Of a DNA stretch of 64,000 bases, positions 3,140-63,784 are shown piece by piece. Origin of the DNA: a virus; the IMG/VR virus record IMGVR_UViG_3300025141_000029, positions 1 to 64,000 of that record; one strand, 5' to 3'. Position numbers and translations under genes: made by a program. The stretch's first letter is position 1. Each line of letters opens with the position of its first letter. The notes beneath the pieces were generated by a model. It was not told where the DNA came from. It made no database searches and saw nothing but the letters and a program-made list of their open reading frames with translations.

Positions 3140-3305
3140 AGTGATATTCCACATCGTCAGATTCTATTCCTTCGATTTCTCCATCGGACCACAAACATTC
3201 GAGCCAAAAGTTTTGTTTTAAGGGTCCGTGGCCGGCAGGTATACCTGAAACATCCAGAATGATAGCAAACTCGCCACCACACTTTATCAAATCACCGACT
3301 TTCAT
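3126..3305 (-). CDS. MKVGDLV-family mini-protein, 59 aa (below ORF-track cutoff)
   Basis: Hand translated MKVGDLIKCGGEFAIILDV...WLECLWSDG...EYHYESR. Confidence 0.8.
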   Translation of the reverse strand: MKVGDLIKCGGEFAIILDVSGIPAGHGPLKQNFWLECLWSDGEIEGIESDDVEYHYESR

Positions 3306-3458
3306 TTACAATCTCCAGTTCTCCCGCATAAAAGTCGACGCCTTCAACTTCCCCAATATCATCGCACCACTTCACCAAGGCTCGGTGGAGGGCTGATTGT
3401 TGACAATCAGCCCAAATGTATTTGAAGGAATGTGTCTTACCAGATCACCTGCTTTCAC
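3292..3458 (-). pseudogene. MKVGDLV-family gene with 1-nt frameshift
   Basis: MKAGDLVRHIPSNTFGLIV then early TGA; family C-terminus (ALVKWCDD...LEIVNESR) lies in the -1 frame; span is 167 nt. Confidence 0.7.
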
Positions 3459-3624
3459 TGACTAACTCCATACGAGGCTCAACCGTCCACACGGGAACCT
3501 CTCTTTCAGAAGTCAGAGATTGAACTTTCCACCAGCGGTTGCCAAATCCATAAGTTTTGTCTCTCTCAATTAAAATGTAATAACCATCTTGTTCAAGTAA
3601 AGTAACTAAATCGCCGGCCTTCAT
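3445..3624 (-). CDS. MKVGDLV-family mini-protein, 59 aa
   Basis: Hand translated MKAGDLVTLLEQDGYYILI...WWKVQ...MELVSESR. Confidence 0.8.
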   Translation of the reverse strand: MKAGDLVTLLEQDGYYILIERDKTYGFGNRWWKVQSLTSEREVPVWTVEPRMELVSESR

Positions 3625-3851
3625 ATTTTTCTACCAGCACCTACGATTGAGCTATCGCTTTCTTCAATCACTTCATTTGCCGGAATCCAATGAACTTTGT
3701 AATAAGGAATATCGGCCAACCTCAAATCAATATCTATTACGATTCCTATTTCCCAATCGTTTCCCTGTTCAGGCGTCCAGCCCTCTTCATTGAGGAGGTT
3801 CTTTTCTTCGTTGGCAGAAAGCTTAACTAAATCACCAACTTCAAACTTCAC
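3621..3851 (-). CDS. MKVGDLV-family mini-protein (GTG start at 3851)
   Basis: MKFEVGDLVKL...IGIVI...YKVHW. Confidence 0.75.
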   Translation of the reverse strand: MKFEVGDLVKLSANEEKNLLNEEGWTPEQGNDWEIGIVIDIDLRLADIPYYKVHWIPANEVIEESDSSIVGAGRKI

Positions 3852-4047
3852 CGGAAACAACCTCAATGCATTGTGATGGTGTCCAGGCTTCTTGTGGGCC
3901 ATATTCATCAGAAAACCAATAAATCCAAGCGCCTTCGCTGCTGCCTTCTCCATGCTTGACGTCATGCATGCGCAAAATAATCCCCGTGTGACCGTGGAAA
4001 TAAGCTCGGCCGGACCTCGCCCACCTGACCAAATCACCCGGCTTCAT
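3841..4047 (-). CDS. MKVGDLV-family mini-protein
   Basis: MKPGDLVRW...TGIIL...WIYW...IEVVSGEV. Confidence 0.8.
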   Translation of the reverse strand: MKPGDLVRWARSGRAYFHGHTGIILRMHDVKHGEGSSEGAWIYWFSDEYGPQEAWTPSQCIEVVSGEV

Positions 4048-4252
4048 TTAGAACCTCCAGCCAGCCGGCGAGCATACAATCTCGGTCCTCACCTTCTTTT
4101 GCTAGGTGTGCCGGTGAAACCCAACGAACCCACCAGCGATGAACACGCTGCTTGTGTTGCCGGTATACAATACCGATCGGGTAGTATTGTTCGCCTCCAA
4201 TATCGTCTGGACCCCATGCGTCGACACTTCTTACCAAGTTACCTACTTTCAT
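4034..4252 (-). CDS. MKVGDLV-family mini-protein
   Basis: MKVGNLVRS...IGIVY...WWVRW...LEVLNEAG. Confidence 0.8.
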   Translation of the reverse strand: MKVGNLVRSVDAWGPDDIGGEQYYPIGIVYRQHKQRVHRWWVRWVSPAHLAKEGEDRDCMLAGWLEVLNEAG

Positions 4253-6431: not shown

Positions 6432-7104
6432 GGGAAAAGATAAAATTTCGCAAAGATCTGCGAGAGGGCGAGATAACAATATGATGAAAGCTCTTGTTGA
6501 TTCGCGAAACAAGACCAATGATTTCACCAGCTATGTTAAGAATCGGGGCTCCAGATGAGCCGGGGTAAGCCGGAATGGTGAAAACAGACGTTAAACTATC
6601 GCCGCCAGCAAAATGTCCAGAAACAACCGGAATTAAACCTTTTCCGGCTACTCCATCGGGGGCCATCATACTCCACACCACTTTACCTCGCGAGGGGCTC
6701 GACGTCGCTATAGGTATCGGATCGGCTAACAGGCTCCGGCCGGTCGTCATTAAACAAATGTCCCTTGAAGGATGAATATCCAATCCAATTGCGGCATATA
6801 CATTATCTTTGTCATCGTGAACAGTCACAAGAACTTTATCAAGAACTTCAGATTGTGCTGCGTTATCAAGCATTTTACGAACCCCAGCACAAATATGCCC
6901 AGCCGTCAAAATTTTGTTTGACCTTACAACAGTTCCAGAGCCAAAGCCGGCTTCCAGTACACAAGTAATACAATTTGCCTTATAGCGTTTCACCTTAATT
7001 TGTACAAAAGAATCGAATGGAATATTTGGCTTTGTGTCCACATACACGCGAGTGCAGGAGCAAAAAATTATTGAGCATAATACAATTAAAAACTTATTCT
7101 TCAT
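6424..7104 (-). CDS. Trypsin-like serine protease with signal/lipoprotein-like leader
   Basis: LTAGHIC (His), DICL (Asp), PGSSG (Ser); start MKNKFLIVLCSIIFCSC. Confidence 0.85.
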   Translation of the reverse strand: MKNKFLIVLCSIIFCSCTRVYVDTKPNIPFDSFVQIKVKRYKANCITCVLEAGFGSGTVVRSNKILTAGHICAGVRKMLDNAAQSEVLDKVLVTVHDDKDNVYAAIGLDIHPSRDICLMTTGRSLLADPIPIATSSPSRGKVVWSMMAPDGVAGKGLIPVVSGHFAGGDSLTSVFTIPAYPGSSGAPILNIAGEIIGLVSRINKSFHHIVISPSRRSLRNFIFSLD

Positions 7105-8174: not shown

Positions 8175-8614
8175 GAGTCTTTTTTATTTTTTTTGAAGAC
8201 CTGGCGTATGGCAGCGAAAGACAGCAAATTAATTGCCAAACACCCAAGAAATAATAATATTGCGTACCACTCCATTATTCTTCAGTTTCATATTCATCTA
8301 GCTCATCTAAAAGCCACTGGAAGTCGCTATCTTCTATCAGGCTTTCAAAATCACTGTCTTCCAAACATGAACTATAGTGACAACGTAATATCTTAACATT
8401 TGCCAGAATATTATTTACAAGATTTTCAGCAATTTCACATTCGTCATTCATAAGTTTGTACCCGCCTCAACTAATAGTTTTCTAATATTATCTATGCGAA
8501 TATTTAATTTTTGTTCATTTTCAGTTAAAATTGCAGTTTTTAAAAGATACAATTGTTTTTTCGCCTCTTCAAGCAACTCGCCGGCTTTTGAGGGCACATA
8601 AACTTTCACTCGAA

Positions 8615-8835: not shown

Positions 8836-9822
8836 TTATATGCTATTTTTACAATCAGAAAAGAAAATTTCTATATTACTAGCTAGTTGCGAAGTTATAT
8901 AACTACACATTTCTTTTTCGTTTTTTAAATCAATAAGCTGTGAATTGTGATATATTTTCCATTGTCCCAATTCTCGCAATACATCCATTTTGCTGATAAC
9001 AAGTTTATTAACAGAATTAAGGGCAATATTTTTTTGTAACTCGTCTAAGTTAAGCCAATTACATTGGCGCGGACGGCCGGTGGTCGCGCCGTATTCGTCG
9101 CCTAAATCACGCAGAGCTTGAAACACCGGATCGGATGGCTCGAAAGATTTGGCTCCAACATAGGTCTCATAAATCTTTGCGACACCCCATACATCACGAA
9201 GCCATCGTGGACTAACGGCATTCAAAAATACGCCGCCTAAACCACAGTGACTAGAAGTGACATATGGATAGTCGCCCCAATCAATATCCAAACCGAATCC
9301 TTGTGCTCCTTCGCATAATACTTTAATTGTTTTATCATTGTGAAATTCCTCGTATAAGTCTATGATATAAGATCGTAATGAAGCTACCTCGTCGGCCCGC
9401 ATTCCTTTGCGGGCATACTTATCGCGATAAGCTGGTCCGTTACCACGACGCGTGGTACCAATCTTATTTTCTGCTGCTTCTTCAAGAAGATGCCCTTCGG
9501 TAATTACATGAGCATTCTTCGCAATAAAAAGCGTACCATCTAATTTAATTCCAGCATCTTGTAGCTCTCTTACTTCTTCAAAAAAATGTTTAGGGCTGAT
9601 TACACATCCAGGTCCAATAATTGATTTAACCCCATAAAATACGCCGGCAGGAATATGATGTGTTACAAATTTCCTACCTTCGTGATAAATTGTGTGACCA
9701 GCGTTACAGCCTCCATTAAATCTCAAAACATGAGTATAATTTTTGTTCTTGGATAAGTAGTGTGTAACTTTTCCTTTGGCCTCGTCGCCATGTTGAATTC
9801 CTAATACTACGTCAGCTAACAT
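8836..9822 (-). CDS. purA: Adenylosuccinate synthetase (short form)
   Basis: QHGDEAKGK, GGCNAGHT, IGTT..GNGPAY.DK, EGAQG..LD...G.YPYVTSS, GATTGRPR. Confidence 0.92.
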   Translation of the reverse strand: MLADVVLGIQHGDEAKGKVTHYLSKNKNYTHVLRFNGGCNAGHTIYHEGRKFVTHHIPAGVFYGVKSIIGPGCVISPKHFFEEVRELQDAGIKLDGTLFIAKNAHVITEGHLLEEAAENKIGTTRRGNGPAYRDKYARKGMRADEVASLRSYIIDLYEEFHNDKTIKVLCEGAQGFGLDIDWGDYPYVTSSHCGLGGVFLNAVSPRWLRDVWGVAKIYETYVGAKSFEPSDPVFQALRDLGDEYGATTGRPRQCNWLNLDELQKNIALNSVNKLVISKMDVLRELGQWKIYHNSQLIDLKNEKEMCSYITSQLASNIEIFFSDCKNSI

Positions 9823-9940: not shown

Positions 9941-10606
9941 CTAATCAAGAATAGTTTTCGCTATATTTTTGACTGCCATCCTTTCGTTGCGAGACAAATC
10001 CCTGTAAGTCTCTAAGCCCTCGGTAAAAGTAAATGGCCGGTTATTAACTCTTGTCATAAACTCTGCTTCTTCGCCCAGCTTGATATTGCCAACCTGTACA
10101 GTTTGTCCTAAGCCTGGAAATTCACTGTAATTTGTGCCATACAAGTGTGCGCCTTCACCACCAGCGGGGATAATTAAAACAGAATCTTGACAAAATTTCT
10201 TGCCGAGCATTATAATATTATCAATAAAATCAGAAGCTTCTGGTAAATTAACAACTATATAACTTTCCTCTCCAACTTCCACGGCTTGTGGGGTATCAAA
10301 ATCTTCAACGTAGTTGCCGCCAACTCTTGTAACTCCATAATTTAATGATAGAAGTGTGGCCTTAAGATCTCGATTTCTTTGCTTGTTGACGCGAAGTTGG
10401 ACGCCTGTTCTGCCACCTTTTCCCTTTACTTCGGGTGGTAAATCCTCTCCGCCTCTCAAGGCATCGTCTACACATTTAGACATATCGTTGGGATCGTTAC
10501 GAAAAGCTGTCAATATTGCCGTCTCTGTCGAGTAAATAAACTTATGTACTCTTGAAAGCGAAGATTCATTGAGAAATGATTTCCATTTACCGAGCAAATC
10601 TTTCAT
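9941..10606 (-). CDS. T3 gp0.3-like SAM lyase (SAMase) with N-terminal leader
   Basis: ILTAFR, N..RNR.L...L, GNYVE, GEES, QDSVL parallel the recalled T3 SAMase motifs LVSAFR, N..RHR, GCYRE, TEEK, QDCVL. Confidence 0.7.
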   Translation of the reverse strand: MKDLLGKWKSFLNESSLSRVHKFIYSTETAILTAFRNDPNDMSKCVDDALRGGEDLPPEVKGKGGRTGVQLRVNKQRNRDLKATLLSLNYGVTRVGGNYVEDFDTPQAVEVGEESYIVVNLPEASDFIDNIIMLGKKFCQDSVLIIPAGGEGAHLYGTNYSEFPGLGQTVQVGNIKLGEEAEFMTRVNNRPFTFTEGLETYRDLSRNERMAVKNIAKTILD

Positions 10607-11793: not shown

Positions 11794-11865
11794 AGCCTTC
11801 TCGCGGATTTGAACCGCGAACGTCCACTTTACAAGAGTGGTGCTCTACCGTTGAGCTAAGAAGGC
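11794..11865 (-). tRNA. tRNA-Thr(UGU)
   Basis: Cloverleaf GCCTTCT/AGAAGGC, loop CTTGTAA. Confidence 0.9.
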
Positions 11866-12710
11866 ATACAATAATCGCGTATCCTTCTTTCAGATATATC
11901 AATATATTTTGTTTCTAAATCAATTCCTATAAACTTTCTATTCTCCAAAAGAGATGCTATTCCGGTACTTCCCGATCCACAAAAAGGATCGATAACAGTA
12001 CCTCCCTCGGGTACAAAAACCTTGACCAAGTAGGACATTAAAGAAATAGGCTTTGGAGTTGGGTGATCGTTGTATTCTCCCCTTTCTTTGCGTGTTACGC
12101 GAGGAGCATAAAAATACTTTTGATGAGCCGGATTATCAAAATATCCAATTATATTAGAAGGATAGCGTCCAGCTGGGTTGGCATCTTCTTTGCCAAATTC
12201 TTTTTGGGTTCCAGTTGTTTTCCCATCTTTTCCAAAGGTAAGCCTCTGTAAACCGCCCTTTACCCAGCCGGTTGGAGGTTTCCCATCCCATGGAATTCTA
12301 GTATTTTGTGTATCAATTAGCCCCACATTCCATTCCTCATGATTCTTTTTCAAAGAACCTTTGAAAGGTTTTTGAGCCACAACTATAGGCTCGTGGGCCG
12401 GCTTAAGCTTATTTTTCTTGGGCATTTTAGTTGTCACCATCCATATAATTTGATCTTTTATCAAAAATCCACCGTCCTCGACGGCGCAGGCCATCCGATG
12501 ATATAGTTGCGGACTACAAAAACTAAGACAAAAGGCACCTGGCTTTAGAATTCTCTTAACTTCGACCCATATTTCAGACGTCGGTACCGAATGGTCCCAC
12601 GCTTCCATTCCCATGCCATACGGAGGATCAGTAACGCAGCCATCAATACTATTATCGGGCAACTCTTTCATCGCCCCCAAGCAGTTTCCTACTATTAACC
12701 TATGAGACAT
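11856..12710 (-). CDS. DNA N6A/N4C methyltransferase, beta class
   Basis: TDPPY before HPTPKP and DPFCGSGSTG; likely start MSHRLIVGNC. Confidence 0.9.
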   Translation of the reverse strand: MSHRLIVGNCLGAMKELPDNSIDGCVTDPPYGMGMEAWDHSVPTSEIWVEVKRILKPGAFCLSFCSPQLYHRMACAVEDGGFLIKDQIIWMVTTKMPKKNKLKPAHEPIVVAQKPFKGSLKKNHEEWNVGLIDTQNTRIPWDGKPPTGWVKGGLQRLTFGKDGKTTGTQKEFGKEDANPAGRYPSNIIGYFDNPAHQKYFYAPRVTRKERGEYNDHPTPKPISLMSYLVKVFVPEGGTVIDPFCGSGSTGIASLLENRKFIGIDLETKYIDISERRIRDYCMPS

Positions 12711-13353
12711 AATCAAATACCTTTTGTTCGCATGCGGTGCGCATAGAATGTAAGAAATAGTCGACATAATCTTTGCCGCCCATTTGATTGTACATCGCCC
12801 GCGTATAAAATTGAAATCCACGCTTAAACTCATCACTCTCTCTTAATTTTTGATTAAGTTCTTCGTCTGCTTTTCTTGCTTTTTCAAGATGTTCTCTTAA
12901 CATCTTTCCTTGCTCACAAGAAAGGATATCCTGCCCTCGATAGACAGTAGTTTCGTCGGTTTTGTCAGAGCAAAAAATATAAATATATTTCGGATTAGGG
13001 AGACCGCTATTATAAATTGGGTAAACTCCTTGGGCGCTCTTACACTCTAGGTAATAAAGCTTGCCCCCAGACTTAACTATGAAGTCTGGACTTTTGTGAG
13101 TTCCGCATGGTTGCGGAATAAAAGAATTATCAGGTAGTTCCGAATGGTCCCCTCCATCTAGCCACAAGTCTCTTAGACCAGTTTTGGGCGCATGTGTGGG
13201 CATCGATGTTTCGACCAAATGATGTTTAACGAGCAGATCTTGAACAGCATCCTCGTGTTTAGCTTCATTGTGGACATTTCCACTTGACGCAGCATAATTT
13301 TGATAATAGGGCATTCGTTGAATATCCTTCATAATCGCGAGCATGTTGCTCAT
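12700..13353 (-). CDS. Putative PD-(D/E)xK restriction endonuclease
   Basis: HE...SPDF...LECKS; overlaps the methylase start. Confidence 0.7.
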   Translation of the reverse strand: MSNMLAIMKDIQRMPYYQNYAASSGNVHNEAKHEDAVQDLLVKHHLVETSMPTHAPKTGLRDLWLDGGDHSELPDNSFIPQPCGTHKSPDFIVKSGGKLYYLECKSAQGVYPIYNSGLPNPKYIYIFCSDKTDETTVYRGQDILSCEQGKMLREHLEKARKADEELNQKLRESDEFKRGFQFYTRAMYNQMGGKDYVDYFLHSMRTACEQKVFDYVS

Positions 13354-47881: not shown

Positions 47882-47920
47882 AATATAACACCTCCCTGGC
47901 TATTGATTGTTTATCATATA

Positions 47921-48898: not shown

Positions 48899-48937
48899 TA
48901 TTATATACCTTGTTCTTATTCATTTAAATCTCCTGTA

Positions 48938-51463: not shown

Positions 51464-51475
51464 TCAGATAAACCC

Positions 51476-51790: not shown

Positions 51791-51843
51791 GATTAAACCT
51801 CATAACGCTATTATAAATAGTATTTTAATGAAAATAAAGACTG

Positions 51844-52069
51844 TTAAGATAACGTATGAGTTTGTTTGCCGGAAGAGGCACCTTTACCACGGGCTTTCTC
51901 AATTTGCTCATGTTCATATTCTTTTTGTTGATTTAGCCTTTCTGTAAACCAATTTCTTAGTTTTACAGGCAGGTTATAAATCTCAATAAAGCTCCAATTT
52001 CCATGATATTTGAGAGCGAATGCTTGTTCGTATAAATGCTTTTGATAATTATGATCTAGGCCAAAAAAA
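51844..52069 (-). CDS. gp51-like chaperone segment, probably reached by frameshift
   Basis: YEQ.F.L.YHG.WSF.EIYNLP..LR.WF; no good start codon of its own. Confidence 0.65.
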
Positions 52070-52909: not shown

Positions 52910-52931
52910 GAAAACCTCTTTTTTGTATTAG

Positions 52932-53621: not shown

Positions 53622-53658
53622 TTATTTAAAGTCTCCCTGTATGATACTAACTCATTTA

Positions 53659-53666
53659 TAATTAGT
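53659..53666 (-). promoter_or_regulatory. Putative late promoter ACTAATTA
   Basis: Upstream of tail tube gene. Confidence 0.6.
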
Positions 53667-53679
53667 TGTTAAATTGTTT

Positions 53680-56646
53680 TTAATCTTCGAAAGATGCTCC
53701 ACTGCGTGTAATTAAGAAATCAATCGCAATAAATTCAATTGCCTTGGCAGGTTTCAAGAATATTTTTGCGTACATAATGTTTCTATCACGCATTTCCGGA
53801 GTGGTCGTTGACTCATCCAAAATGAGTTTGTAATCTTCAAGACCAAATTTTGATTGAACATCTTTAAGAACCGGATTTGCTGCGCCGACGAAACGGGCCC
53901 AAGTTGAGGGAACGTTTTGATCAAATAAAACCAGGTTTGCAATTTGAGAAATTCTCTTTTTGAGATAAATCATCAAGCGACGAACATTAATTCTATCTAG
54001 CGCCGATTGCTCAAGCTGTAGTGTCTTCTGTCCAAAGACCACAATTCCTTCTGCCGGAAAAGAAGCAATCGGATTGATTCTAACATCATAAAGATCATCT
54101 CTTTCACGCGAAGTAAGTTTTCTGCGAACATTTGTTATCGGAATACCGGCAGCACCCTTGCTCAAGCCGCCTCGATTAAAGCCGGCTGGAGCAAACCAAA
54201 GTTCACTTCTTGCGGCAGAACTACCCATTGTTCCCAAAGCAGCTACAGAAGATGGAATCCACAACATTTGGCCTGTGCCCCCATCAACTGTCTGTACCCA
54301 CGGGAAGAAGGCGCAGCCATAACTTGAATTTGTAGATCTGGCTCTCATACTAGCAACGGCTTGAGCAACATCCGGAACTGCTGGATATGAAGTTGAATCT
54401 GGATCACCTTCCTGTACTGGTACGTAATCATTTTCTACATCGATGATCGCCAGAGCATCGCCCCGGTCTTCACAAACTTCGATCAAACGGTCAGTAAACG
54501 CCGGCACGTAAACACCAGGTATCGTCGCAAGATTACATTCTACAACTTCTGGATCCGCAATAATATTGATTGCTCTATTCACCGAGGCGCGTGCATAATT
54601 TGTAACATCGGTGGTGCCGCGGCCTCCGGTGGAGGTGACCCCATCTAATACGGTATTGCGGAATGGATCACGATCTGTAATATCAAGACCATCAAAACCT
54701 CCATGTAATACTGTGGTAAATTTACTAATCTTGTTTGTATTGATCAGTGCGGACGAGCCGGACTTGGCAGTCCAAGACGTACTGCTGGCGCGGGAGCCGG
54801 ATTCATAATACCAAGAATCACCATCGGCTTTTGTTGAGCTATTCTTGCCGCCAGAACCTGTTTTAATTAGATTATCTAATGTAAATACATATTGATACTT
54901 GACGGGCGTCGCGATGGTGGAGCCCGGGGTCCAACTATCAAGACCCATTGGCTTAGCTCGAACCAGATCTAAAGTGCCTTCATCAAATCTAGTTTTTGAG
55001 CCGGCTTGATTAACATTCACACCGAAATACGCATCTCGGGGGTCAATAAAGCCCATATCGCTCGAAGAACCAATAAGAGCCAAAGATGGGGAGGTAAAGC
55101 TGCCAGTCATGCCCTCGGTGTCGGTGCCGGGGGAGGTGGCGCAACGAATGTACGTTAACGGCATTTCATAGCCCTTGGCAATAAAGCCGGCGTCTTGGGT
55201 GTGAGGGTTCCGGCCGGTGGTAGCAATCTCAGCCGACACGCTCGTGAGCGAGCTGGAGACCATTGTCCAAGTCTTATATGTTAGCGGCCCTTTTACACCA
55301 AATGGCATGAGTTCCGCGTTCAAAGTACCAGCATCCACATCAGAATCCATTTCTACACGAATGTATTTGGAAACATTATTGTAGTTTCCATAATGTACGA
55401 GCCTCTGAGTTACTGAATCGTATTGAAATCTTTTATCGCCGATTTTACGTGCTATATAATTCGGAGATTGAGGATTTAAATTACAATTAGAGAAAGTCTC
55501 TAAAACTTTCGGACGTATATCAGTATCGCGCAATTGGCGAACTTCCAGCGTGAAAGAAGGGTAAGGATCTACTGATTTTTCTTGAGCACTTGGAGATCTT
55601 AAATCACGAATTGAAATTTTAATTTCTTTTTGTGTTTGCTCTCCATTTGCTGTCAGGCCATGAACTCTGAATAAGTTCTCCGTATGGACCGCTGGATTAA
55701 ATGTAACAGCGGGAGCACTAGTATCTTGTGAAATAAACCAACCAGTGGCGGCAGCTTGAGGGCCTTTATCTGTCGTCGTAAGTCCCAAGAAATCTGCGCC
55801 ATCGATTGAGCCCGAAAGAAGACCTAAAATTATACCATAATATCCGTCTGAACTTGACAATGCAGCAACAGCTTTTTCATAAGTTTCTCCTAGCCAATAA
55901 TCAATTCTTTTTTCCGATGATACGGTGCCCGTATTTATTCTTGTTGGATCCGTATTAAAGGCGGCCCGAATATAATTTGAACTGGTTCGAACAAAATCAA
56001 CGCTTTTTGTTTCCACAACTCCATTGGCGCCTGTTAAAGCAATCTTAAATTGTGGTGGATTTCCGGCCGTACCGACTGAGTTAATAAAAATTGCATTCCC
56101 TCGTTCGTTGCCGGCGGTACTGACAGCGCGAACAGAGCCAGATAAAACAGGAGTAGACCCAGTACAATAAAAAACCGCAGCAAGAGTACCAGTGACGGCC
56201 GTGTCGTACGAGGCCGATGGACAAATCCACAAACCATAAGCGCCGATGCCGTTGTCGTCACTGGATAAGCCGCCCGGTGACCAACCGGCTGCTCCAGCAG
56301 CTTTAGTGGCTCCGGCATTAACTGATTGTGCTCCCAATAAACGTACAAACGTTATTGGGCTGTTATTGGCCAGATATGCTTTTGCAGCATATGTAGCATA
56401 CATGGGACTGGTGAAATTTCCGTTTCTCCATACATCAAGCGACGTACCTCCAGGTACAGTATCTCCAAATATTTGGACAAATTCATCATAAGATCTAATA
56501 ACTGTTGGTACAAAAGCCGGTCCCATGGCGGTTCGGCCAATAATGACGGGTCCCTGAACCACATTTCCTAAATTTGGTACTTGAGATTGGTCGACTTCTG
56601 TTATGAAGACTCCAGGTGACACAAAACGATATTTATCTGCCGGCAT
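53680..56646 (-). CDS. Tail sheath protein (gp18-like)
   Basis: SPGV...EVD, WFAPAG..RG, INPI, FGQKT, RINVRRL, EFI. Confidence 0.95.
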   Translation of the reverse strand: MPADKYRFVSPGVFITEVDQSQVPNLGNVVQGPVIIGRTAMGPAFVPTVIRSYDEFVQIFGDTVPGGTSLDVWRNGNFTSPMYATYAAKAYLANNSPITFVRLLGAQSVNAGATKAAGAAGWSPGGLSSDDNGIGAYGLWICPSASYDTAVTGTLAAVFYCTGSTPVLSGSVRAVSTAGNERGNAIFINSVGTAGNPPQFKIALTGANGVVETKSVDFVRTSSNYIRAAFNTDPTRINTGTVSSEKRIDYWLGETYEKAVAALSSSDGYYGIILGLLSGSIDGADFLGLTTTDKGPQAAATGWFISQDTSAPAVTFNPAVHTENLFRVHGLTANGEQTQKEIKISIRDLRSPSAQEKSVDPYPSFTLEVRQLRDTDIRPKVLETFSNCNLNPQSPNYIARKIGDKRFQYDSVTQRLVHYGNYNNVSKYIRVEMDSDVDAGTLNAELMPFGVKGPLTYKTWTMVSSSLTSVSAEIATTGRNPHTQDAGFIAKGYEMPLTYIRCATSPGTDTEGMTGSFTSPSLALIGSSSDMGFIDPRDAYFGVNVNQAGSKTRFDEGTLDLVRAKPMGLDSWTPGSTIATPVKYQYVFTLDNLIKTGSGGKNSSTKADGDSWYYESGSRASSTSWTAKSGSSALINTNKISKFTTVLHGGFDGLDITDRDPFRNTVLDGVTSTGGRGTTDVTNYARASVNRAINIIADPEVVECNLATIPGVYVPAFTDRLIEVCEDRGDALAIIDVENDYVPVQEGDPDSTSYPAVPDVAQAVASMRARSTNSSYGCAFFPWVQTVDGGTGQMLWIPSSVAALGTMGSSAARSELWFAPAGFNRGGLSKGAAGIPITNVRRKLTSRERDDLYDVRINPIASFPAEGIVVFGQKTLQLEQSALDRINVRRLMIYLKKRISQIANLVLFDQNVPSTWARFVGAANPVLKDVQSKFGLEDYKLILDESTTTPEMRDRNIMYAKIFLKPAKAIEFIAIDFLITRSGASFED

Positions 56647-56691
56647 TATTAATTTCTCCTTAAAAAAGCTTTGATGTGGAAATAGCTATAA

Positions 56692-56699
56692 TAAATAGT
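56692..56699 (-). promoter_or_regulatory. Putative late promoter ACTATTTA
   Basis: Upstream of sheath gene. Confidence 0.65.
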
Positions 56700-56724
56700 A
56701 AATAAATAACCAAAAAGAATTTTA

Positions 56725-57636
56725 TCAAGATTTATAGAAACTATCTTTGCCCGTAGGATTAGGAACTTCAAAAACAACTCGCTCGCGACCAATTTTAATT
56801 TCGACTGCGTTTTGCGTTTTGGTGATCTTGGGAAGATTTTCATTTGGGCCGGCGCCGTGGATATAACCAAGAACTCTTAAGCTCAAGGTCATTTTGAATT
56901 TACGCTCCTGTTCTTCTAAAGTTGATATGGTGTTATCTACCGCATAGTCAGAATCCAAAAAACCTTCATATGAGTGGCCATTGCGACTCAAAATAATATA
57001 ATTTGATGCGTTTGTCGCATCAATCATATATGCAGCAATATCATTCATTTGTTGTTGATATTCAGTGAAACACTCAACTTCATAGTTGATTTCCATGTAA
57101 GACGGCGCCGGTATTGTTATTGTTTCATATACAACCTTTTTGTTAATACGTTTAAAATTCTTGTCGCCGGCATCATTGCTTTTACGGAAAGCATCTGCTG
57201 TTGCGAACTTATTTGTATCATCTTGTGCTATACGTCGAGCGATGATAACATCTGACTCTCCTGCTTGCCGCAATCTATCAAGTGGCGAAAATAACTTTCC
57301 TCGCTTGGTGCGATCTTTTGATATTCCTCTGCGCTCAATTGTTACTGCGGGATAGACGACGGCGCCGAGATCGTCACTTTTCGCAATAAATGTTTCATCG
57401 TCAGTCCAATTCCTGTCTTTTCTATTAAATGCGCGCTCAATGCCAACCCAAGAAACTGGAACCAATCTAAAACCTTCATTTGAATAAGTTGAAATATTTA
57501 AATTTTGAAAAAAATTATAAACAGAAAAATCAATATTTTCCAAAGTCGAAGGCATAAATATCTGCTCTTCTACCCTATCAGGCTTTTCTACTTCCGTATA
57601 AGAATAATCAATATCTTTTCTTCTATCTACCATCAA
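56725..57636 (-). CDS. Tail terminator / sheath stabiliser (gp15-like)
   Basis: Synteny; P.Y....Y...T.YQ.QMN pattern. Confidence 0.6.
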   Translation of the reverse strand: MMVDRRKDIDYSYTEVEKPDRVEEQIFMPSTLENIDFSVYNFFQNLNISTYSNEGFRLVPVSWVGIERAFNRKDRNWTDDETFIAKSDDLGAVVYPAVTIERRGISKDRTKRGKLFSPLDRLRQAGESDVIIARRIAQDDTNKFATADAFRKSNDAGDKNFKRINKKVVYETITIPAPSYMEINYEVECFTEYQQQMNDIAAYMIDATNASNYIILSRNGHSYEGFLDSDYAVDNTISTLEEQERKFKMTLSLRVLGYIHGAGPNENLPKITKTQNAVEIKIGRERVVFEVPNPTGKDSFYKS

Positions 57637-58114
57637 AAAGTCCCTTTCTCGCTCTCACACATTTAGCGGTAATTTCAAATCTATGATCAGCTTGTCCAAA
57701 TAATTGTTTAGGTTCATTTAAAGTAACAATTTCATAATAAAATTTACCATATAAAACAAAATCACCTTCTCGAATAAATATATCTTGATCTTCTGTTAAT
57801 CTTCTTTTGTGAAAATGAATATTTATCGTCGTAATGACATCCAATCCGTATTTATCAGTTGTCGTTTGTAATCCTTCCCAATCAACCAAAGCAAATACCC
57901 TAACCGGTGGTAAAAATGTTTTTTCTATCGCTTCACCATATAAAGAATGATAATCCGTTGTTGTAACATCAATCGCATAATACAAAACTTGTTGACCAAT
58001 AATTCGCTCAACTAATTCATCGTTAACCTGCTTTACAAGATCACGCTCTTTTTTGTTTAAAAATAAAGGCGGGGGTGGATCTGCGGGTTGTGACCATTTA
58101 TTACTATCTGACAC
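57623..58114 (-). CDS. Neck protein (gp14-like)
   Basis: LYGE, EGD, YEI; synteny. Confidence 0.7.
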   Translation of the reverse strand: MSDSNKWSQPADPPPPLFLNKKERDLVKQVNDELVERIIGQQVLYYAIDVTTTDYHSLYGEAIEKTFLPPVRVFALVDWEGLQTTTDKYGLDVITTINIHFHKRRLTEDQDIFIREGDFVLYGKFYYEIVTLNEPKQLFGQADHRFEITAKCVRARKGLFDGR

Positions 58115-58119
58115 TTACA

Positions 58120-59388
58120 TCACCCCACATATACGCCATATGGTATAGTCTTTAGCATATTATTGGTCGATTGGGCCATAGTAGCCTGGTCTTCCACAAT
58201 TTTACTATACGTTATTTCGGCCAATATAGTTTTAAGCTCTTCTCTCAGCTTATCTTGCTCTTCTTTAGCTTGAGCGGCCAATTCAGAAGCATTCAACGTG
58301 ACTGATTCTCCTGGTATCGGAATTGTCGTAAATTTACCTCTTATTTGCGCCAATATCTCCTTGGCCAAAGAAAAAGCAAAGCGTCGAATCCACTGTTTAC
58401 CAATTGAATTAATGTTTTGGTATGGAATATTTGCAAAAGGCAATGTATTCATATTATTGATTCCATTAACTCCAGTATCCACACTACCGGTAGCTTCCGT
58501 CCATGGATCACTCTTGATTGTAAAATCAACATACATCTTTTTAGGAGAATAATCGCCTGGACGCGGAAAGACTCTTATTTTATTACTCTTAATCTCATAA
58601 GAATAATGAGAATTTCTTGTATAAATTGCGTCTTCGTACGCCATAGATTGAAGTTTGTTTTGCCACGGTGGAATAACTTCAAAAGTAGAATCATCGGCGT
58701 ACATGCCGTATGTCGACATATTACCAATTGCGTTAATTCCGCCATAATAGCCGAAAAATCTCCACATCGCGTGTGGTGTTTTATAAAAAACTCGACGAAC
58801 TGTTACCCTATTTGTTCCTACTTTTCCATAGAATGAAGAGCTGGCATCGTTGGCTGAAGACGAAGCTATAATTTCTTGTAAATCATAATCTTGCTGACCA
58901 CTTACAATTGCAAATGAGCCAGAATAAATTGGCTCTGTGCCGCCAATACCAACTTCTGTTGCTGTTTTGTCGGCAATTTGTCTTGCGTAGCCAAAATCAA
59001 ATTTAGGATATTTTAAACTGGCGCTTAACGCAGCAACAGAAGTTTCTTTTATTTCGCCATCATGATCAAATGTGCCAGTAATAGCACCAAGAACCGATCC
59101 AATCGCATTTTTAGCCTGGTGTATATTGACTAGATATGAATACTCTAAAACAGCCTCTTCATAGGCCGCAAAAACGTTTTTTTGCGTTAATTCAACGTTT
59201 AGGACATCGCCACCAAGCTTTCGATAAGTATAATTAACTTGTTCGGCGGCTCCAGAAACGAAATCTGTATTTTCTACATATATGCCATACGGATAATTAG
59301 CAGCACTGGCAGCTGAAGTTAAAGATCCCGTCTCCGGTAATGTTATAGCTGGTGTTGTTGACGTCGGCGTTAATGTAGGTACAGCCAT
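58120..59388 (-). CDS. Neck protein (gp13-like head-tail adaptor)
   Basis: KLG...VEL, W.RR....AK..L...RGKF..P...LN. Confidence 0.75.
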   Translation of the reverse strand: MAVPTLTPTSTTPAITLPETGSLTSAASAANYPYGIYVENTDFVSGAAEQVNYTYRKLGGDVLNVELTQKNVFAAYEEAVLEYSYLVNIHQAKNAIGSVLGAITGTFDHDGEIKETSVAALSASLKYPKFDFGYARQIADKTATEVGIGGTEPIYSGSFAIVSGQQDYDLQEIIASSSANDASSSFYGKVGTNRVTVRRVFYKTPHAMWRFFGYYGGINAIGNMSTYGMYADDSTFEVIPPWQNKLQSMAYEDAIYTRNSHYSYEIKSNKIRVFPRPGDYSPKKMYVDFTIKSDPWTEATGSVDTGVNGINNMNTLPFANIPYQNINSIGKQWIRRFAFSLAKEILAQIRGKFTTIPIPGESVTLNASELAAQAKEEQDKLREELKTILAEITYSKIVEDQATMAQSTNNMLKTIPYGVYVG

Positions 59389-59415
59389 TCATTTGTTCTC
59401 CGTGGATTACTAATA

Positions 59416-59423
59416 TAAATAGT
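59416..59423 (-). promoter_or_regulatory. Putative late promoter ACTATTTA
   Basis: Upstream of neck gene. Confidence 0.65.
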
Positions 59424-59437
59424 ATCTGCTGGGAGTA

Positions 59438-59647
59438 TCAAACTTTTTTAGTTGTTTTCTCGGCCACAGATCTTGAAAGATCCTTTTTTACAGGGGCCTT
59501 TTTTACAGGGGCCTTTTTTACAGGGGTCTCGACAGTTTTTTTTGGAGGTGCCGGTGGCGCTGCGACAACTGGAGCTTCTTCAACAACTGGCGTTGCTGCA
59601 GCTGCTTGTCTCGCTAATAATCTAAGTCTTTTCTTCTTTCTACCCAT
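59438..59647 (-). CDS. Small Lys/Ala/Pro-rich histone-H1-like protein
   Basis: PVKKA x3; GGAGG RBS; late motif at 59672-59679. Confidence 0.65.
   Translation of the reverse strand: MGRKKKRLRLLARQAAAATPVVEEAPVVAAPPAPPKKTVETPVKKAPVKKAPVKKDLSRSVAEKTTKKV
59482..59526. repeat. 15-bp perfect tandem repeat x3
   Basis: ccttttttacagggg. Confidence 0.9.
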
Positions 59648-59742
59648 GATAATAGGCCTCCTATTTCCTTATAAATAGTTGATTATAAAACAAAAATCTC
59701 AAAAATTGACTGCGAAAAAAAATTGACCAATTGAGTTTTCAT

Positions 59743-59776
59743 AAAAAAACCCCGCCAAGGAAAACCAAGGCGGGGT
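59743..59776 (-). terminator. Intrinsic terminator
   Basis: ACCCCGCC..GG....CC..GGCGGGGT plus U-tract. Confidence 0.8.
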
Positions 59777-59806
59777 ATACTATAATAATAAAAGTTGAAT
59801 CTAAAT

Positions 59807-60109
59807 CTAAGCTGACCCAGCGCAGCCTTGAGAGCCAGTTACAAAAGTCCAAGCATAACCACCAGATCCAGACATACAAATATAAAATCTTTGACAATTT
59901 CCATCTGTCTGTATTGTCATTGTGCCCAGTGTATTTATGTTACAAGAACCAGTCGAAGCTACGGGAAATTGAGATCCTGACAGGCTTGTTCCGCTTGAGC
60001 CCGAAATTGAAGAGGCACCATAAGTTGTCTCTCCTTCGGATCCGCTAACAGTAGTCTGACTACCACTAATTGTTGTTTCGCCTGCTGACGATGATACGTT
60101 AATCGGCAT
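59807..60109 (-). CDS. Ser/Gly/Thr-rich small virion protein
   Basis: Repeated SGS motifs; coupled to the upstream gene. Confidence 0.55.
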   Translation of the reverse strand: MPINVSSSAGETTISGSQTTVSGSEGETTYGASSISGSSGTSLSGSQFPVASTGSCNINTLGTMTIQTDGNCQRFYICMSGSGGYAWTFVTGSQGCAGSA

Positions 60110-60389
60110 CTTCTTCTCCTTCTTCTATTTCCTCTAAAACAAATTTATAAAGTTTTCCATTCTGATTATTCTTTATAGACAAATAATTACTTTCCTCTAC
60201 AATTGTCCAATCACCTCTATCATTCTTTAGTTGTAAATCTTGTGTGTATATATTCGCAAATCTGTTATCGCGTGATCCTAAATTTGCGGCGCCGTTACTG
60301 GTTGGCCTAATATTTGCTTGTATTAAGATATCTTGTACTACTGCTTCTATTAGTGCTCGTATTCTTAGAGTACCGATTTTTTTGGCCAT
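60099..60389 (-). CDS. Stand-alone fibre C-terminal-like module
   Basis: LGS...RF.NIYT.DL.L.N.RG.WT..EE...NN..GK.YKF.LEEI; late-like ACTACTTA at 60421-60428. Confidence 0.6.
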   Translation of the reverse strand: MAKKIGTLRIRALIEAVVQDILIQANIRPTSNGAANLGSRDNRFANIYTQDLQLKNDRGDWTIVEESNYLSIKNNQNGKLYKFVLEEIEEGEEDAD

Positions 60390-60457
60390 TAACTAATCCC
60401 TCCCTTGTTCCTCACACTAATAAGTAGTCTTCGATGTGGGCATGCTCTCAATTTTTA

Positions 60458-60491
60458 TAAAAAAACCCCGATCTCTCGAAAGAAACCGGGG
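60458..60491 (-). terminator. Intrinsic terminator after major capsid gene
   Basis: CCCCGG...TCGGGG plus U-tract. Confidence 0.8.
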
Positions 60492-60515
60492 CATATCAAA
60501 CTACGCTAATTGTTA

Positions 60516-62348
60516 TTAGCCGGTGCCAGACTCACCAAGGAGTCCGCGGACAACAACAAGGCCATACATATCAGGTCGGACCATCTTCTTAGCGTAACGA
60601 GTCATCACGCCCTTACGGGGCACGAAGTCTTCGGTACCGAAGATTGTCGGAGTGACCTGGAGAGGTACGTACGGGGCATATACATAACCCGTTTCGAGGA
60701 AACTGCCACCCTTACGGCCGACAAGAACCAAGTTACGCGGGAAGTACGGATCAACCCAGAGGTCCCATTTCTTGGAAATGGATCCAACGTTGACAGCACC
60801 AACAGTACCACGATCAGCATCAGCTGTAACGTTAGCACGGAAACCAGCAGTAAACTCAAGGATGTTAGCAACTTCAGGTGAGGTCACCAAGAAGTTAGCT
60901 CCACCACGTAGAGTCTTTCTGTGGATCTGAGCGCTTACGTCATTAACGGTCTCGACAAGAGTCTCATACCATTCGCTGACCGTACCAGTGAAGTCAGGAG
61001 CAGCTGCGCTAGCACCAACTTCTAGACCAGTTGTACGATTAACGAAAAGTCCCGGGGAGCGCGACCAGTAGTATGTACCAGCTGTAGCACCCTGAATAAG
61101 ATCGTTAACGATTTCGCGGTCAATCTCAAGAGCGATCTGCTCAGAAAGAATCTGAGTAAGCTCAACCTCGGCATCAAGGTTATGATAAGCATTTAGGTCT
61201 TGACCTAATTCCGGAGACCACTTGGCCTTCAGTTTCTTGGTCATCGCCGTAACAGCAATACTGTCGACTTTGATATCAATCTCGGGAATGGTATTCTTAA
61301 CATTTCCATCAAACTCATTATCAGGAACATTGCCAGCACCCTCCAAGGGGAAGATATCGCCAACGACGGCGCCAACAGCAGAAGCTTGATCGTAATCATC
61401 AGCAACGGGATAAGTCAAAGCAATTGTACCAGAAACAGCATCAAAGGTAGCTGCAGGACCAGCCAGAGTAACAACCAATCTTTCAGTTCCGCTGACGGTA
61501 ACAAGTTTAGTCAAACGACGAACAAGCTGAATGGTCGTGGAGGCGGGCGGGTCTTCGGCGGCATCTAAGACGAAGCCATTAATTGCCGAAGCCGAAATAG
61601 CAATTAAGTTCTTGCGATTAAGCGGACCAGAATTATTACCATCAGAAGAATAATCATCACTACCGGGCACACTCATTGTAATCTGCAGATAAGTATTAGT
61701 ACTATCAGCAAGAGTATCCGGATCCCAACGAAGAGAAGCCAGCTGAGCGGCACCAGCCGTAGTACCATTAAGGTTGGCCAGGTCCGCCATCGTAGTACTA
61801 GCTGTTATCGGAGCCCAGGCAGACTGGCCGGCCGACGCCGTCAAACCGGGCGCGGCGACAGCGACCGATCCTGTCGGCGAAGTATAACCAGTTTGGAGGT
61901 TATAAAAACCACCGCCGTCTTCTGTAATGTCGGTCACGCCACCAGTTAACTCACTGCCAACCACGCCACCGCCGTAAAGTGACTCACCAGCATCTAGACC
62001 CGACCGTTGTTCGTTAAAAGTAAAGTCCATGAAGAAAATGAGGCCTGACGGGAGGCTCATCGGCTGAACCGAAACGAGATCGTTTGCGATCAAACCACCG
62101 AAAACTCTGCGGACGAGAGGAAACGCAACTGCTGCGAAACCTTGAACGTCGGCGCCGCCCATTGAAGAGGCCTCTTTAAGTAATTGAGCCGCCTGGTTTT
62201 CGAGCAAGCGAGCCATTCCATTTTTGGCACTGTCCGTATTAAGACCCTCTAAAAGACCGGTGCGCTCCCATTTTTCAATGATGGCAGCACCTTCTTTAGC
62301 AAGGGATCTGTCAACGATGCCTTCTGTTAATTTTTTTAAAACTGACAT
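60516..62348 (-). CDS. Major capsid protein (T4 gp23-like)
   Basis: VQPM..PSGLIF, LKA.WS.E..QDL.A.H..DAE.EL..I..EIDRE, YAPYVPL, TRY. Confidence 0.96.
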   Translation of the reverse strand: MSVLKKLTEGIVDRSLAKEGAAIIEKWERTGLLEGLNTDSAKNGMARLLENQAAQLLKEASSMGGADVQGFAAVAFPLVRRVFGGLIANDLVSVQPMSLPSGLIFFMDFTFNEQRSGLDAGESLYGGGVVGSELTGGVTDITEDGGGFYNLQTGYTSPTGSVAVAAPGLTASAGQSAWAPITASTTMADLANLNGTTAGAAQLASLRWDPDTLADSTNTYLQITMSVPGSDDYSSDGNNSGPLNRKNLIAISASAINGFVLDAAEDPPASTTIQLVRRLTKLVTVSGTERLVVTLAGPAATFDAVSGTIALTYPVADDYDQASAVGAVVGDIFPLEGAGNVPDNEFDGNVKNTIPEIDIKVDSIAVTAMTKKLKAKWSPELGQDLNAYHNLDAEVELTQILSEQIALEIDREIVNDLIQGATAGTYYWSRSPGLFVNRTTGLEVGASAAAPDFTGTVSEWYETLVETVNDVSAQIHRKTLRGGANFLVTSPEVANILEFTAGFRANVTADADRGTVGAVNVGSISKKWDLWVDPYFPRNLVLVGRKGGSFLETGYVYAPYVPLQVTPTIFGTEDFVPRKGVMTRYAKKMVRPDMYGLVVVRGLLGESGTG

Positions 62349-62365
62349 GTTAAAATCTCCTTATA

Positions 62366-63784
62366 TTATTTTTTATTTAAGCCAGCCAAAATTTTCCATC
62401 TATCAATAGATGAATCATTTTGGATTGTTTTGTTTTCTCTGTCGCGGTTGCGATGAGAAAGGATCAATGTTGAAGTAGTCTTATTCATTGCTTCGCTCAA
62501 CGATTCTGGCTTATTATTCTTAATGGTGCTGCCCGTTGCGCTTTGAAGTGTTTCATAAATTATTTTAGCTTCTTCAACACTTTCAGAGTTAGATAAGGCT
62601 TCGACAATTTTATTTTTTTGTCGCTCATTCAGAGAGTCGCTCATCAAAACTTTGTTTGTATATAATAGTTTGGCATTCGCAAGATTGGATTCACTTAATT
62701 TATCCTTCAATCTGTTTGTAACACCAAGTAATTCTTTTTTATCAGATGTCAATTTATTAACATCTGTCTGTAATTTGTTGCTCGATTCTTCAAGATTTTT
62801 AAGAGCCTTTCTTTTAGCATCCCACTCTTCACGAACTTTTGAATCCTGAAGCATTGCCAAAAGTTCTTCTTCTGCCAATCGAAAAACAGATTCCGGTGGC
62901 GTGCCCCAACCCGATTGAAGCGTTTTTATATCTACATCAACCGTTAGGGCCTCTTCAACAACTTCGTTTAAATCTTCTTCATTAATCTCTAAGGATTCAC
63001 CATTTTCATCAACCACGTCGCGTTTCCAGCCCGAGCCCTTTATGGGCGGCGTGGACGGCGCAGTCTTCGACGGGATCCCCTTTGGGGCCTTGGGGTACGA
63101 CTTCGCCGCCGGCTGGGTAGTCGGGCCGGGCCTTGGATCACCGACGTCCCGGGTCGGCAAGTCCTTGACGGGGACGGCCATGGGTTGATCCAGGCCCGGG
63201 ATGGGGTTTTCAATGGGATCATAATCGAGCCCGGGGAGCATCGTCGACGGGTCACCCTCAGAAGCCTCGACCATCTGCGCTAGTTCGTCCAATAAATCTT
63301 CTTCCAATGTCATTTCCGTATATGTATCTTTGTTTGACATTTCTTTTAAAAAGCCTTCATCAAGCTCTAGGTTTTCTGGAATTGTTTCCAGGGGCCCTTC
63401 TTCGTCCCCCATTAGTTCAGTATCCTCTAAGGTGCCAGGCTCTTCTCCTGCCTCCAAATCAGACTCTAAACTCTGTAAATCAATATGTACTGTCTGTGTT
63501 TCGTCCGGACACGCACATAATTCTAGACCTTCGGCATTTGCTAGCGGAAGGTCGACTTCGGGATCTTCGGGATCTTCTTCTGCTTCGAGAGCACCAAATT
63601 CTTGACCCTCAATGCTTTCATCTTCGACGTCTCCAAAAACATCTTCTTCGACTTCTAAGATTTGCTGGACGGCTTCTTTAATTTGATCTGAAAATTTATC
63701 TAATACTGTTGCTTCTGCATTACGCAAAGCAACTTCTTTTAAAGCCTCCGCGTCAATAATAGCTTGATCAAGCAAATTTGACAT
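62366..63784 (-). CDS. Prohead scaffold/core protein
   Basis: Acidic coiled coil directly upstream of MCP; ends RW..LAGL. Confidence 0.8.
   Translation of the reverse strand: MSNLLDQAIIDAEALKEVALRNAEATVLDKFSDQIKEAVQQILEVEEDVFGDVEDESIEGQEFGALEAEEDPEDPEVDLPLANAEGLELCACPDETQTVHIDLQSLESDLEAGEEPGTLEDTELMGDEEGPLETIPENLELDEGFLKEMSNKDTYTEMTLEEDLLDELAQMVEASEGDPSTMLPGLDYDPIENPIPGLDQPMAVPVKDLPTRDVGDPRPGPTTQPAAKSYPKAPKGIPSKTAPSTPPIKGSGWKRDVVDENGESLEINEEDLNEVVEEALTVDVDIKTLQSGWGTPPESVFRLAEEELLAMLQDSKVREEWDAKRKALKNLEESSNKLQTDVNKLTSDKKELLGVTNRLKDKLSESNLANAKLLYTNKVLMSDSLNERQKNKIVEALSNSESVEEAKIIYETLQSATGSTIKNNKPESLSEAMNKTTSTLILSHRNRDRENKTIQNDSSIDRWKILAGLNKK

Follow-up and report, generated by a model that had tools for sequence, protein, structure and literature searches.

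GCCGGC over-representation in an uncultured marine T4-like phage, a compositional trait of its family

How does a phage with rather AT-rich DNA come to be crowded with one GC-rich palindrome? The question is raised by the first 64 kb (the window) of the IMG/VR virus record IMGVR_UViG_3300025141_000029, a record of 157,733 bp, 87% complete, of an uncultured marine T4-like ('far-T4') phage. The hexamer GCCGGC is in excess here, the reverse of the palindrome avoidance that is normal in phages, as the first-pass annotation had noticed from the letters of the DNA. The word was taken either for an iterated palindrome driven by methylation or repair, or for a binding or self mark, and a methylase gene in the window was pointed to as one whose target should be checked. 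Our answer is that a whole family of uncultured marine T4-like phages shares the excess as a trait of composition, and that it is not a set of individually functional sites. The over-representation at the DNA level is real, and we find it somewhat probable that this trait of the family is kept up by biased substitution.

There are exactly 55 copies in the window (the first at 3231-3236 and the last at 63108-63113), in agreement with the earlier count by eye of at least 55, and all 19 coordinates then given as examples are correct; the whole 157.7-kb record has 116. The guanine-plus-cytosine (GC) content of 38% that had been estimated for the window is instead the value of the whole record (37.6%), the window itself having 40.3%. 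A zero-order model expects 4.1 copies in the window and about 7 in the record, which makes a raw excess of 13-17x. Shuffles of the window that preserve dinucleotides give 6.65 +/- 2.45 copies, with a maximum of 14, and Markov models of order 1, 2, 3 and 4 expect 6.8, 14.1, 30.0 and 39.1. Ranked by z, GCCGGC is the top hexamer under orders 0-3, in the window and in the genome, and among the twenty hexamers made of three G and three C its 116 copies are followed by 52 of the runner-up. Over the whole genome this amounts to 735 sites per Mb, and within the window to 859. The 20 nt on each side of the sites have the background composition and every flank is different, so the hexamer itself is the unit. 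This genome has no preferred 8-mer context around the sites (32 palindromic 8-mers against 29.1 expected), and a wider motif was rejected, as were tandem or repeated coding segments as the source of the sites here, since all flanks differ.

Part of the raw excess comes from the proteins. We used a synonymous-codon shuffle within genes that preserves the protein, every dipeptide and the codon usage of each gene, and it expects 28.3 +/- 5.4 sites in the genome against the 113 coding sites observed (4.0x, z 15.8), and 14.0 +/- 3.2 in the window against 54. Codon and dipeptide usage had been named from the start as what might make the enrichment disappear; under this control the excess shrinks to about 4x and persists. 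The excess over base composition that had first been quoted is real in kind and misleading in size, a factor of about 4 being plain Ala-Gly and codon composition. It has three layers, of which about 4x is due to the amino-acid and codon make-up, about 1.6x to NNC-GNC pairs and short-range clustering of GC, and about 2.6x is specific to the hexamer. In practice this means that a signal of this sort looks about 4-fold too large when raw counts are judged by base composition, and that codon-shuffled nulls are essential.

The reading frames are unevenly used. Genome-wide, the pair GCC-GGC (Ala-Gly) accounts for 86 of the 113 coding sites (76%) and xxG-CCG-GCx (Pro-Ala) for another 23, which leaves 4 in the third frame, and the window has 38 Ala-Gly, 13 x-Pro-Ala and 3 third-frame sites besides an intergenic one. 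The earlier remark that the word occurs in more than one frame is right, all three being used, with the reservation that 70% of the window sites are one codon pair. That pair is the most deviant of the genome (86 against 20.7, z 14.3), followed by another CCGG palindrome, CCC-GGG, and it spells one third (86 of 255) of the Ala-Gly dipeptides. It would be natural to see in this a by-product of translation, where Ala-Gly is common, GCC and GGC are favoured, NNA-GGN is avoided and C-ending neighbours attract, and where the word has no meaning at the DNA level. The codon and amino-acid composition does by itself lift the expectation from 6.8 to 28, and the NNC-GNC pairs are in excess also without GCC-GGC (660 against 416, or 1.59x). 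A or G before GG, which would make AGG or GGG, is avoided in every four-fold family, and the scarcity of GCA-GGC (4 against 24) is explained by this avoidance of A.

The residual of about 2.6x remains after all of this, however, and it is not confined to one frame. In frames 0, 1 and 2 we observe 86, 4 and 23 sites where the shuffle expects 23.8, 0.6 and 4.4, so that frames 1 and 2 (6.7x and 5.2x) are more enriched than the Ala-Gly frame (3.6x), and an excess in all frames must act on the DNA itself. In frame 0, moreover, the third base of the Gly codon tends to be complementary to the base that opens the codon before it, in all four NCC-GGN' pairs, where N' is complementary to N. No translational model predicts such a complementarity, which argues that the constraint acts on the duplex. 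The ratio of observed to expected (O/E) over the shuffle is uniform across the gene classes (replication, structural, glycan island; 2.1-6.1) and the terciles of genes by third-position GC content, GC3 (4.7, 4.7 and 3.5), and expression-linked codon choice was rejected on these grounds. There are also relatives that have the same proteins and not a single site. The translational explanation is largely refuted by the tests of frame and symmetry, and we hold it to be very improbable. GC-rich mosaic tracts were also ruled out, since the autocorrelation of GC at third positions (0.376, 0.343, then a plateau at about 0.32 against a mean of 0.297) is limited to lags 1-2 and fades after two codons.

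Related words, relatives and turnover

GCCGGC is not the only word in excess. GC-only runs of at least 8 bases number 242 in the genome, 68 of them with GCCGGC, and are 1.8-4.5x the expectation of the shuffle. Against the same null, all-GC hexamers that are not palindromic are at 1.64x (median 1.46) and the palindromic ones at 2.64x, with GCCGGC at 4.0, CCCGGG at 3.9, GCGCGC at 3.2 and CGGCCG at 3.0. The CCGG core occurs with complementary flanks (NCCGGN') 229 times against 130.8 expected, and all four pairs contribute, with ACCGGT at 27/16, CCCGGG at 41/12, GCCGGC at 116/80 and TCCGGA at 45/22.5 observed to expected. This excess is present within each reading frame (1.50x, 1.69x and 1.95x). 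It had been thought that the core might be the wider RCCGGY, but that is not the unit; relative to the synonymous shuffle GCCGGT comes to 0.63x and ACCGGC to 1.56x, the two together giving 55 copies against about 75 (a hand estimate with independent flanks), and they are not enriched, in contrast to the four palindromes.

The preference for palindromes extends to all cores. Compared with maximal-order Markov models, palindromic hexamers are at 1.11x and octamers at 1.22x, the ratio rising with GC content, whereas direct and mirror repeats are at 1.0, and the hexamer palindromes of four control phages (T4, RM378, immuto and Mel-JY01) are at 0.83-0.95x. Inverted repeats of GC trimers are most in excess when their arms adjoin directly (2.57, with direct repeats at 1.78), the excess decays within a few bases of spacer, and that of palindromes is gone at 10-mers.

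Some words are avoided beside this excess. CTCGAG (XhoI type), GAGCTC (SacI type) and CGCGCG have 0 copies each in 157.7 kb, where 13-18 of each are expected. The first two are avoided family-wide, with 3 and 4 copies in 556 kb of enriched relatives and 0 and 0 in 182 kb of purged ones, while the avoidance of CGCGCG is confined to this genome (47 copies in the enriched relatives). CCCGGA/TCCGGG is depleted (5 against 32.6) while CCCGGG is enriched (41 against about 10), and hexamers that contain TGCA are depleted as well, e.g. ATGCAA (7 against 72); GTGCAC has 3 copies and CACGTG 2. A palindrome excess of its own is found in the Microcystis phage Mel-JY01 (our locus L090, PP395634.1 1-50000), a cultured far relative that could serve as an experimental proxy. 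In these 50 kb, which have 35.6% GC, 1.5 copies of CCCGGG are expected and 44 are found, about 20 of them in a collagen-like tandem-repeat gene at 739-2298 and about 23 dispersed in AT-rich context; GCCGGC and GGCGCC both have 0 copies.

The relatives show how far the trait extends. In 80 viral loci around the capsid gene, GCCGGC is either common or absent, and over the 114 family loci of at least 8 kb the O/E is bimodal, with 35 loci below 0.5, 57 at 4 or more and 11 between 0.5 and 2. Among the 80, 44 enriched loci (556 kb, 43% GC) have 443 copies against 58 by the zero-order model, together with a general excess of GC words, hexamer palindromes at 1.12x, octamers at 1.24x and all four NCCGGN' raised. 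Against the synonymous shuffle, 51 enriched loci have 605 sites where 221.6 are expected, a ratio of 2.7x (10th-90th percentile 1.95-4.14) that is somewhat inflated because the loci were picked by site density; the 4.0x of this genome is at the high end among them. Computed without GCCGGC, the O/E values of the palindromes in this genome and in its enriched relatives are correlated (rho 0.71), and of the all-GC palindromes the phage family has most copies of GCCGGC and GGCGCC.

The other side of the distribution is represented among the 80 by 21 purged loci (182 kb, 44% GC), which hold 0 GCCGGC, 0 CCCGGG, 3 GGCGCC, 1 GCGCGC and 63 GGCC. In the capsid tree 17 of the 21 form one clade with 99% support, covered here by contigs of 28 kb or less, and enrichment is found on both sides of the root. 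Seven of the eight most enriched palindromes of this genome are nearly absent from that clade. Two sister contigs of 21.8 kb each (L064 and L071) have 0 and 24 sites, a complete flip of the trait between lineages that are not far apart in evolution. Palindromes are thus enriched in a marine phage family that is widespread while close relatives purge the same words, and the neutral level is rare (the 11 of 114).

The sites turn over fast. At Ala-Gly positions conserved between this phage and enriched relatives, a relative has GCCGGC in 20% of the cases where this phage has it, and in 12% where it has not. Pairs of relatives with 81-89% DNA identity share 5 sites and do not share 31, so that GCCGGC is retained at 24% compared to 39% for other all-GC hexamers. 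The nearest long relative, L094 (Ga0208299_1000242), has 77% DNA identity and 42 sites in 23 kb, which is 2.5x the density of this genome, and where the two genomes align they have about 43 sites between them, of which about 4 are shared. The differences are mostly synonymous (GCTGGT, GCAGGC, GCCGGT and similar). A contig that is 98.5% identical over only 4.8 kb, L095, keeps 5 of 5 sites. Sites that are so dense and yet come and go freely point to a continual biased creation or to selection on their number, and not to a function that is specific for position.

Selection on number is what a mark of some kind would need. A protein of the phage or the host would read GCCGGC in a density-dependent way, as a binding site or self mark for packaging, initiation of recombination, nucleoid organisation or protection, and selection would then keep the number of sites and not their positions. 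The high density that is kept despite turnover, the symmetry of the palindrome, which would suit a dimeric reader, and the family-wide occurrence are all in line with this. The density differs however about 4-fold among the enriched relatives (0.4-1.8 per kb), many other GC words are enriched, and a whole clade survives without any site. The spacing is irregular and Poisson-like (coefficient of variation 1.17), there is no intergenic enrichment (3 of 116 sites, in a genome with 5.6% non-coding DNA), and no candidate reader was found. Functional dispersed signals such as Chi, uptake sequences and binding sites are recognised by positional conservation or non-random placement, and neither is seen here. 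With positions that are not conserved and a turnover at least as fast as that of other GC hexamers, the binding or self mark that was first suggested is not borne out, and we regard a selected function as very doubtful.

Candidate sources of the bias

The methylase to which the excess had been linked is a DNA methyltransferase of the N6_N4_Mtase family at 11856-12836 on the minus strand, and it is the sole DNA methylase of the record. Its motif IV is DPPY, and it is matched best by N6-adenine enzymes of the CcrM, DpnA, RsrI and MboIIA type. GCCGGC contains no adenine and the enzyme can thus not act on it, which excludes it as the agent. Searches of the record for C5 methylase (PF00145), Vsr (PF03852) and DUF559 (PF04480) found none, with the positive controls detected, and MutH was not found either; the same goes for NgoMIV and NaeI, whose searches had no positive control and carry less weight. 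No homologue of ThyA or of dCMP-hydroxymethylase was found in the record, and cytosine hypermodification was rejected for that reason.

The methylase could of course be one of the host. Solitary cytosine methylases, or those of restriction-modification systems, with GCCGGC, RCCGGY, CCCGGG or GGCGCC as target would then mark the replicating phage DNA, and mismatch repair that depends on methylation (of Elhai's G-meC type or of the Vsr type) would complete the words. The same words are known as alternate highly iterated palindromes (HIPs) in cyanobacteria with cognate methylases (PMC4390886), and Caulobacter has a solitary YGCCGGCR methylase with a Vsr-like partner (PMC12907096). The enriched words are type II targets and the same ones are purged in the sister clade, the trait flips between the sister contigs L064 and L071, and the CCGG cores are special among all-GC cores, all of which speaks for this explanation. 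The traces that such repair ought to leave are not there, however. The words that arise by deamination are not depleted relative to the shuffle (GCTGGC 0.96x, GCCAGC 1.74x, GTCGGC 1.93x, GCCGAC 2.17x), Elhai's one-off intermediates GCCGGT and ACCGGC are not enriched, there is no preference for Y..R flanks around the sites, and GC-only words that are not palindromes are enriched too. The profile is also shared at 58-77% capsid identity, and this would require the same set of methylases in all hosts. We therefore think of the host-methylase explanation as rather unlikely, if the strongest of the alternatives.

What we find somewhat probable is, as said, biased substitution. A bias in mutation, or a mismatch-repair 'ratchet' as has been proposed for the cyanobacterial HIPs, would maintain the excess, acting wherever synonymous freedom allows, and lineages whose hosts restrict these words would purge them completely. 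The drive would be on the DNA duplex, layered over the Ala-Gly codon composition, and in some lineages overridden by purging under restriction. A drive tied to the replication or recombination machinery of the phage itself seems to us somewhat likelier than one by host methylases, because the profile is common to distant members of the family, because no cytosine methylase, Vsr or MutH is found in the record, and because such a drive can do without enzymes of the host type.

Several points weigh against this reading. We infer the biased gain of sites from the high density and the fast turnover and not from the direction of substitutions. The top words (GCCGGC, CCCGGG, GTCGAC and GGCGCC) are classical type II targets, and exactly those are purged in the sister clade, which fits a link to host restriction-modification or methylases. 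The CCGG cores are at 1.66-1.75x whereas GGCC is at 1.05-1.26x, and that CCGG stands out in this way among all-GC cores suggests recognition by a protein over generic chemistry. The record is 87% complete and a phage enzyme could sit in the missing part, the gene calls are simple longest-ORF (open reading frame) calls, and T4 itself has no palindrome excess.

A bolder idea is that a replication, recombination or repair activity encoded by the phage is a built-in 'palindrome ratchet', which writes GC-rich perfect palindromes, and with them type II targets, into the phage's own genome. Enrichment would then be the default state, and only lineages that meet the matching restriction enzymes would flip to total purging. 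We consider this improbable, but if it is true, viruses have a directional drive on their sequence of a kind that is new, and the unsolved HIP problem gains a mechanistic handle. If the generator is more generally a bias of repair or replication, it is a directional mutational force that sets a third of the Ala-Gly codon pairs, and in these phages, as a small and tractable system, one could study how palindromes of the HIP type originate, a question that is 30 years old. If the generator is instead host methylation, the word profile becomes a fingerprint of host range for uncultured phages.

Sites and genes of the window

Nearly all genes of the record are on the minus strand. We could identify a gp23-type major head protein, a DNA polymerase, a UvsX-like recombinase (38872-39960), a DnaB-like helicase, a ribonucleotide reductase, GroEL and ClpP. 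Marine viromes contain relatives of the capsid protein by the hundred, whereas those in culture are all distant (Microcystis phage Mel-JY01, Flavobacterium phage immuto and Rhodothermus phage RM378), and megablast against cultured phages gave no match. Near-identical DNA is found in marine metagenomes from about 21 studies. The metagenome-assembled genome bins that contain relatives point to no one host, as they belong to unrelated phyla (Acidiferrobacteraceae, Legionellales, Pirellulales, Flavobacteriales and Woesebacteria).

The sites are spread over the window from end to end. The first, at 3231-3236, is intergenic by the ORF call, and the one at 4064-4069 is in frame 1 by a call that is uncertain in this region of small genes; the other frame 1 sites are at 29524-29529 in the DNA polymerase gene (Arg-Arg-His) and at 47077-47082 (Gly-Arg-Pro). 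In frame 2 the residue before Pro-Ala varies, being Lys at 12397-12402, within the adenine methylase gene, at 30229-30234 and at 34849-34854 in the ribonucleotide reductase gene; Met at 36201-36206 in the DnaB-like helicase gene and at 56639-56644; Gln at 43441-43446 and 63108-63113; Trp at 16668-16673; Glu at 32307-32312; Thr at 45111-45116; Ala at 45945-45950; and Val at 54500-54505. Two sites overlap at 53325-53334 (GCCGGCCGGC), the one starting at 53325 being Ala-Gly in frame 0 and the one at 53329 Val-Pro-Ala in frame 2.

The remaining sites are all Ala-Gly in frame 0. Those in the first half of the window are at 3613-3618 (minus-strand ORF 3445-3624), 6946-6951, 8580-8585, 9643-9648 (in a PurA-like gene), 17056-17061, 17413-17418, 17722-17727 and 18586-18591 (both in the GroEL-like gene), 19855-19860, 22043-22048 (in the ClpP-like gene), 28145-28150 and 28613-28618 (both in the DNA polymerase gene), 31548-31553 and 31650-31655. 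They continue with 39613-39618 in the UvsX-like recombinase gene, 41676-41681, 44441-44446 (ORF 44252-47536), 44543-44548, 45806-45811, 48275-48280, 49463-49468 (ORF 48938-51463), 49586-49591, 49604-49609, 49682-49687, 50339-50344, 51017-51022, 51737-51742, 52601-52606, 53007-53012, 53052-53057, 54181-54186 (ORF 53680-56646), 55000-55005, 55186-55191, 56110-56115, 56848-56853, 57166-57171 and 61827-61832, the last in the major head protein gene. The five sites retained in the 98.5%-identical strain L095 are those at 55186, 56110, 56639, 56848 and 57166. Of these, the site at 56639 is retained in L094 too, while the one at 56848 is GCGGGC there and the one at 57166 is lost.

For positions 44001-64000 we also have variants from contigs of four marine runs, and 0 of the 40 variants listed, out of 556, fall inside a GCCGGC site. 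In the contigs of run X4 there is a co-occurring strain, about 2.4% divergent in this region, with for instance 95 differences in 3.9 kb. Because many relatives map to the capsid gene (60.0-61.3 kb), the depth there is very high.

Two genes at lower coordinates than the methylase deserve a remark. The PurA-like gene at 8836-9822 (minus strand) encodes an adenylosuccinate-synthetase homologue of 328 amino acids, with more than 100 homologues, 60-85% identical, on phage-sized marine contigs. It is below the NCBIfam cut-offs of both PurA and PurZ, and as it scores 193 bits to PurA compared to 58 bits to the aminoadenine enzyme PurZ, and is thus far nearer the former, the thought of a Z-base genome was dropped. 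A gene of the SAM (S-adenosylmethionine) lyase family at 9941-10606 (minus strand) is situated within about 3 kb of two genes for SAM-dependent methyltransferases, the DNA adenine methylase and an RNA methylase of the SpoU type at 13371-13919 (minus strand), which would be an odd pairing if all three are co-expressed.

Comparison with known systems

Phages are textbook avoiders of palindromes under restriction pressure. The targets in that case are GC-rich palindromes of 4-6 bp as here, and the purged clade shows the classical pattern, but for GCCGGC and most GC palindromes of this genome, and in about half of the family, the sign is reversed. We searched the literature for a described palindrome excess in phages and found none.

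Template switching is another process that could be compared with the present case. Mutation templated by quasi-palindromes was reportedly first described by Ripley in the rII genes of phage T4. It would perfect near-palindromes in any frame without a methylase, and would suit a recombination-dependent T4-like phage with UvsX. Besides the lack of an excess in T4, the effect here differs in being strongest without a spacer and gone at 10-mers, and the prominence of CCGG is left unexplained.

In E. coli, very short patch (VSP) repair by Dcm and Vsr biases CCWGG and raises the methylated word. A solitary cytosine methylase for a GCCGGC core does exist in Caulobacter, where ScmA, specific for YGCCGGCR, has the Vsr-like partner VsrA (PMC12907096). 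The phage differs from such systems in that the T-containing neighbours are not depleted, the flanks have no Y/R bias and the record has no C5 methylase, Vsr or DUF559.

The closest likeness is to the HIPs. HIP1 (GCGATCGC) is, like GCCGGC, a GC-rich palindrome in unexplained excess, genome-wide and independent of frame, and the literature connects it with methylases; HIP1-rich genomes carry GATC and CGATCG methylases. It is an 8-mer with palindromic extensions, unlike GCCGGC in this genome, and its O/E of 40-70 is far above the excess found here. Cyanobacteria that have lost HIP1 have alternate HIPs instead. Oscillatoria PCC 10802 has rCCGGy (GCCGGC, GCCGGT and ACCGGC) and Calothrix PCC 7103 has GGCGCC, each with a cognate methylase and 1000-2000 copies per Mb, and Elhai's proposal (2015) is that a methyl-directed mismatch-repair ratchet produces them, the excess being an epiphenomenon (PMC4390886). 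The analogy with HIPs that was drawn at first sight holds in that these are the same words. They are GC-rich perfect palindromes scattered over coding DNA in several frames, the density here (735-860 per Mb) is of the same order and slightly under the quoted one, and the excess may in both cases be a by-product of repair and not of selection on single sites.

There are also clear differences. The alternate HIPs belong to cellular genomes with a cognate methylase, whereas this is a virus with only an adenine-type DNA methylase, in a record that is 87% complete and with a host enzyme possible. Elhai's model expects a one-off excess at the outer positions, and there is none here; the raised words include all four NCCGGN' as well as many GC words that are not palindromes, and a sister clade purges the word. 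What is shared with the HIPs is an outstandingly over-represented palindrome, beyond codon preference and in several frames, and we file the GCCGGC of this phage family as HIP-like in its behaviour and not as a member of the methylase-linked HIP system.

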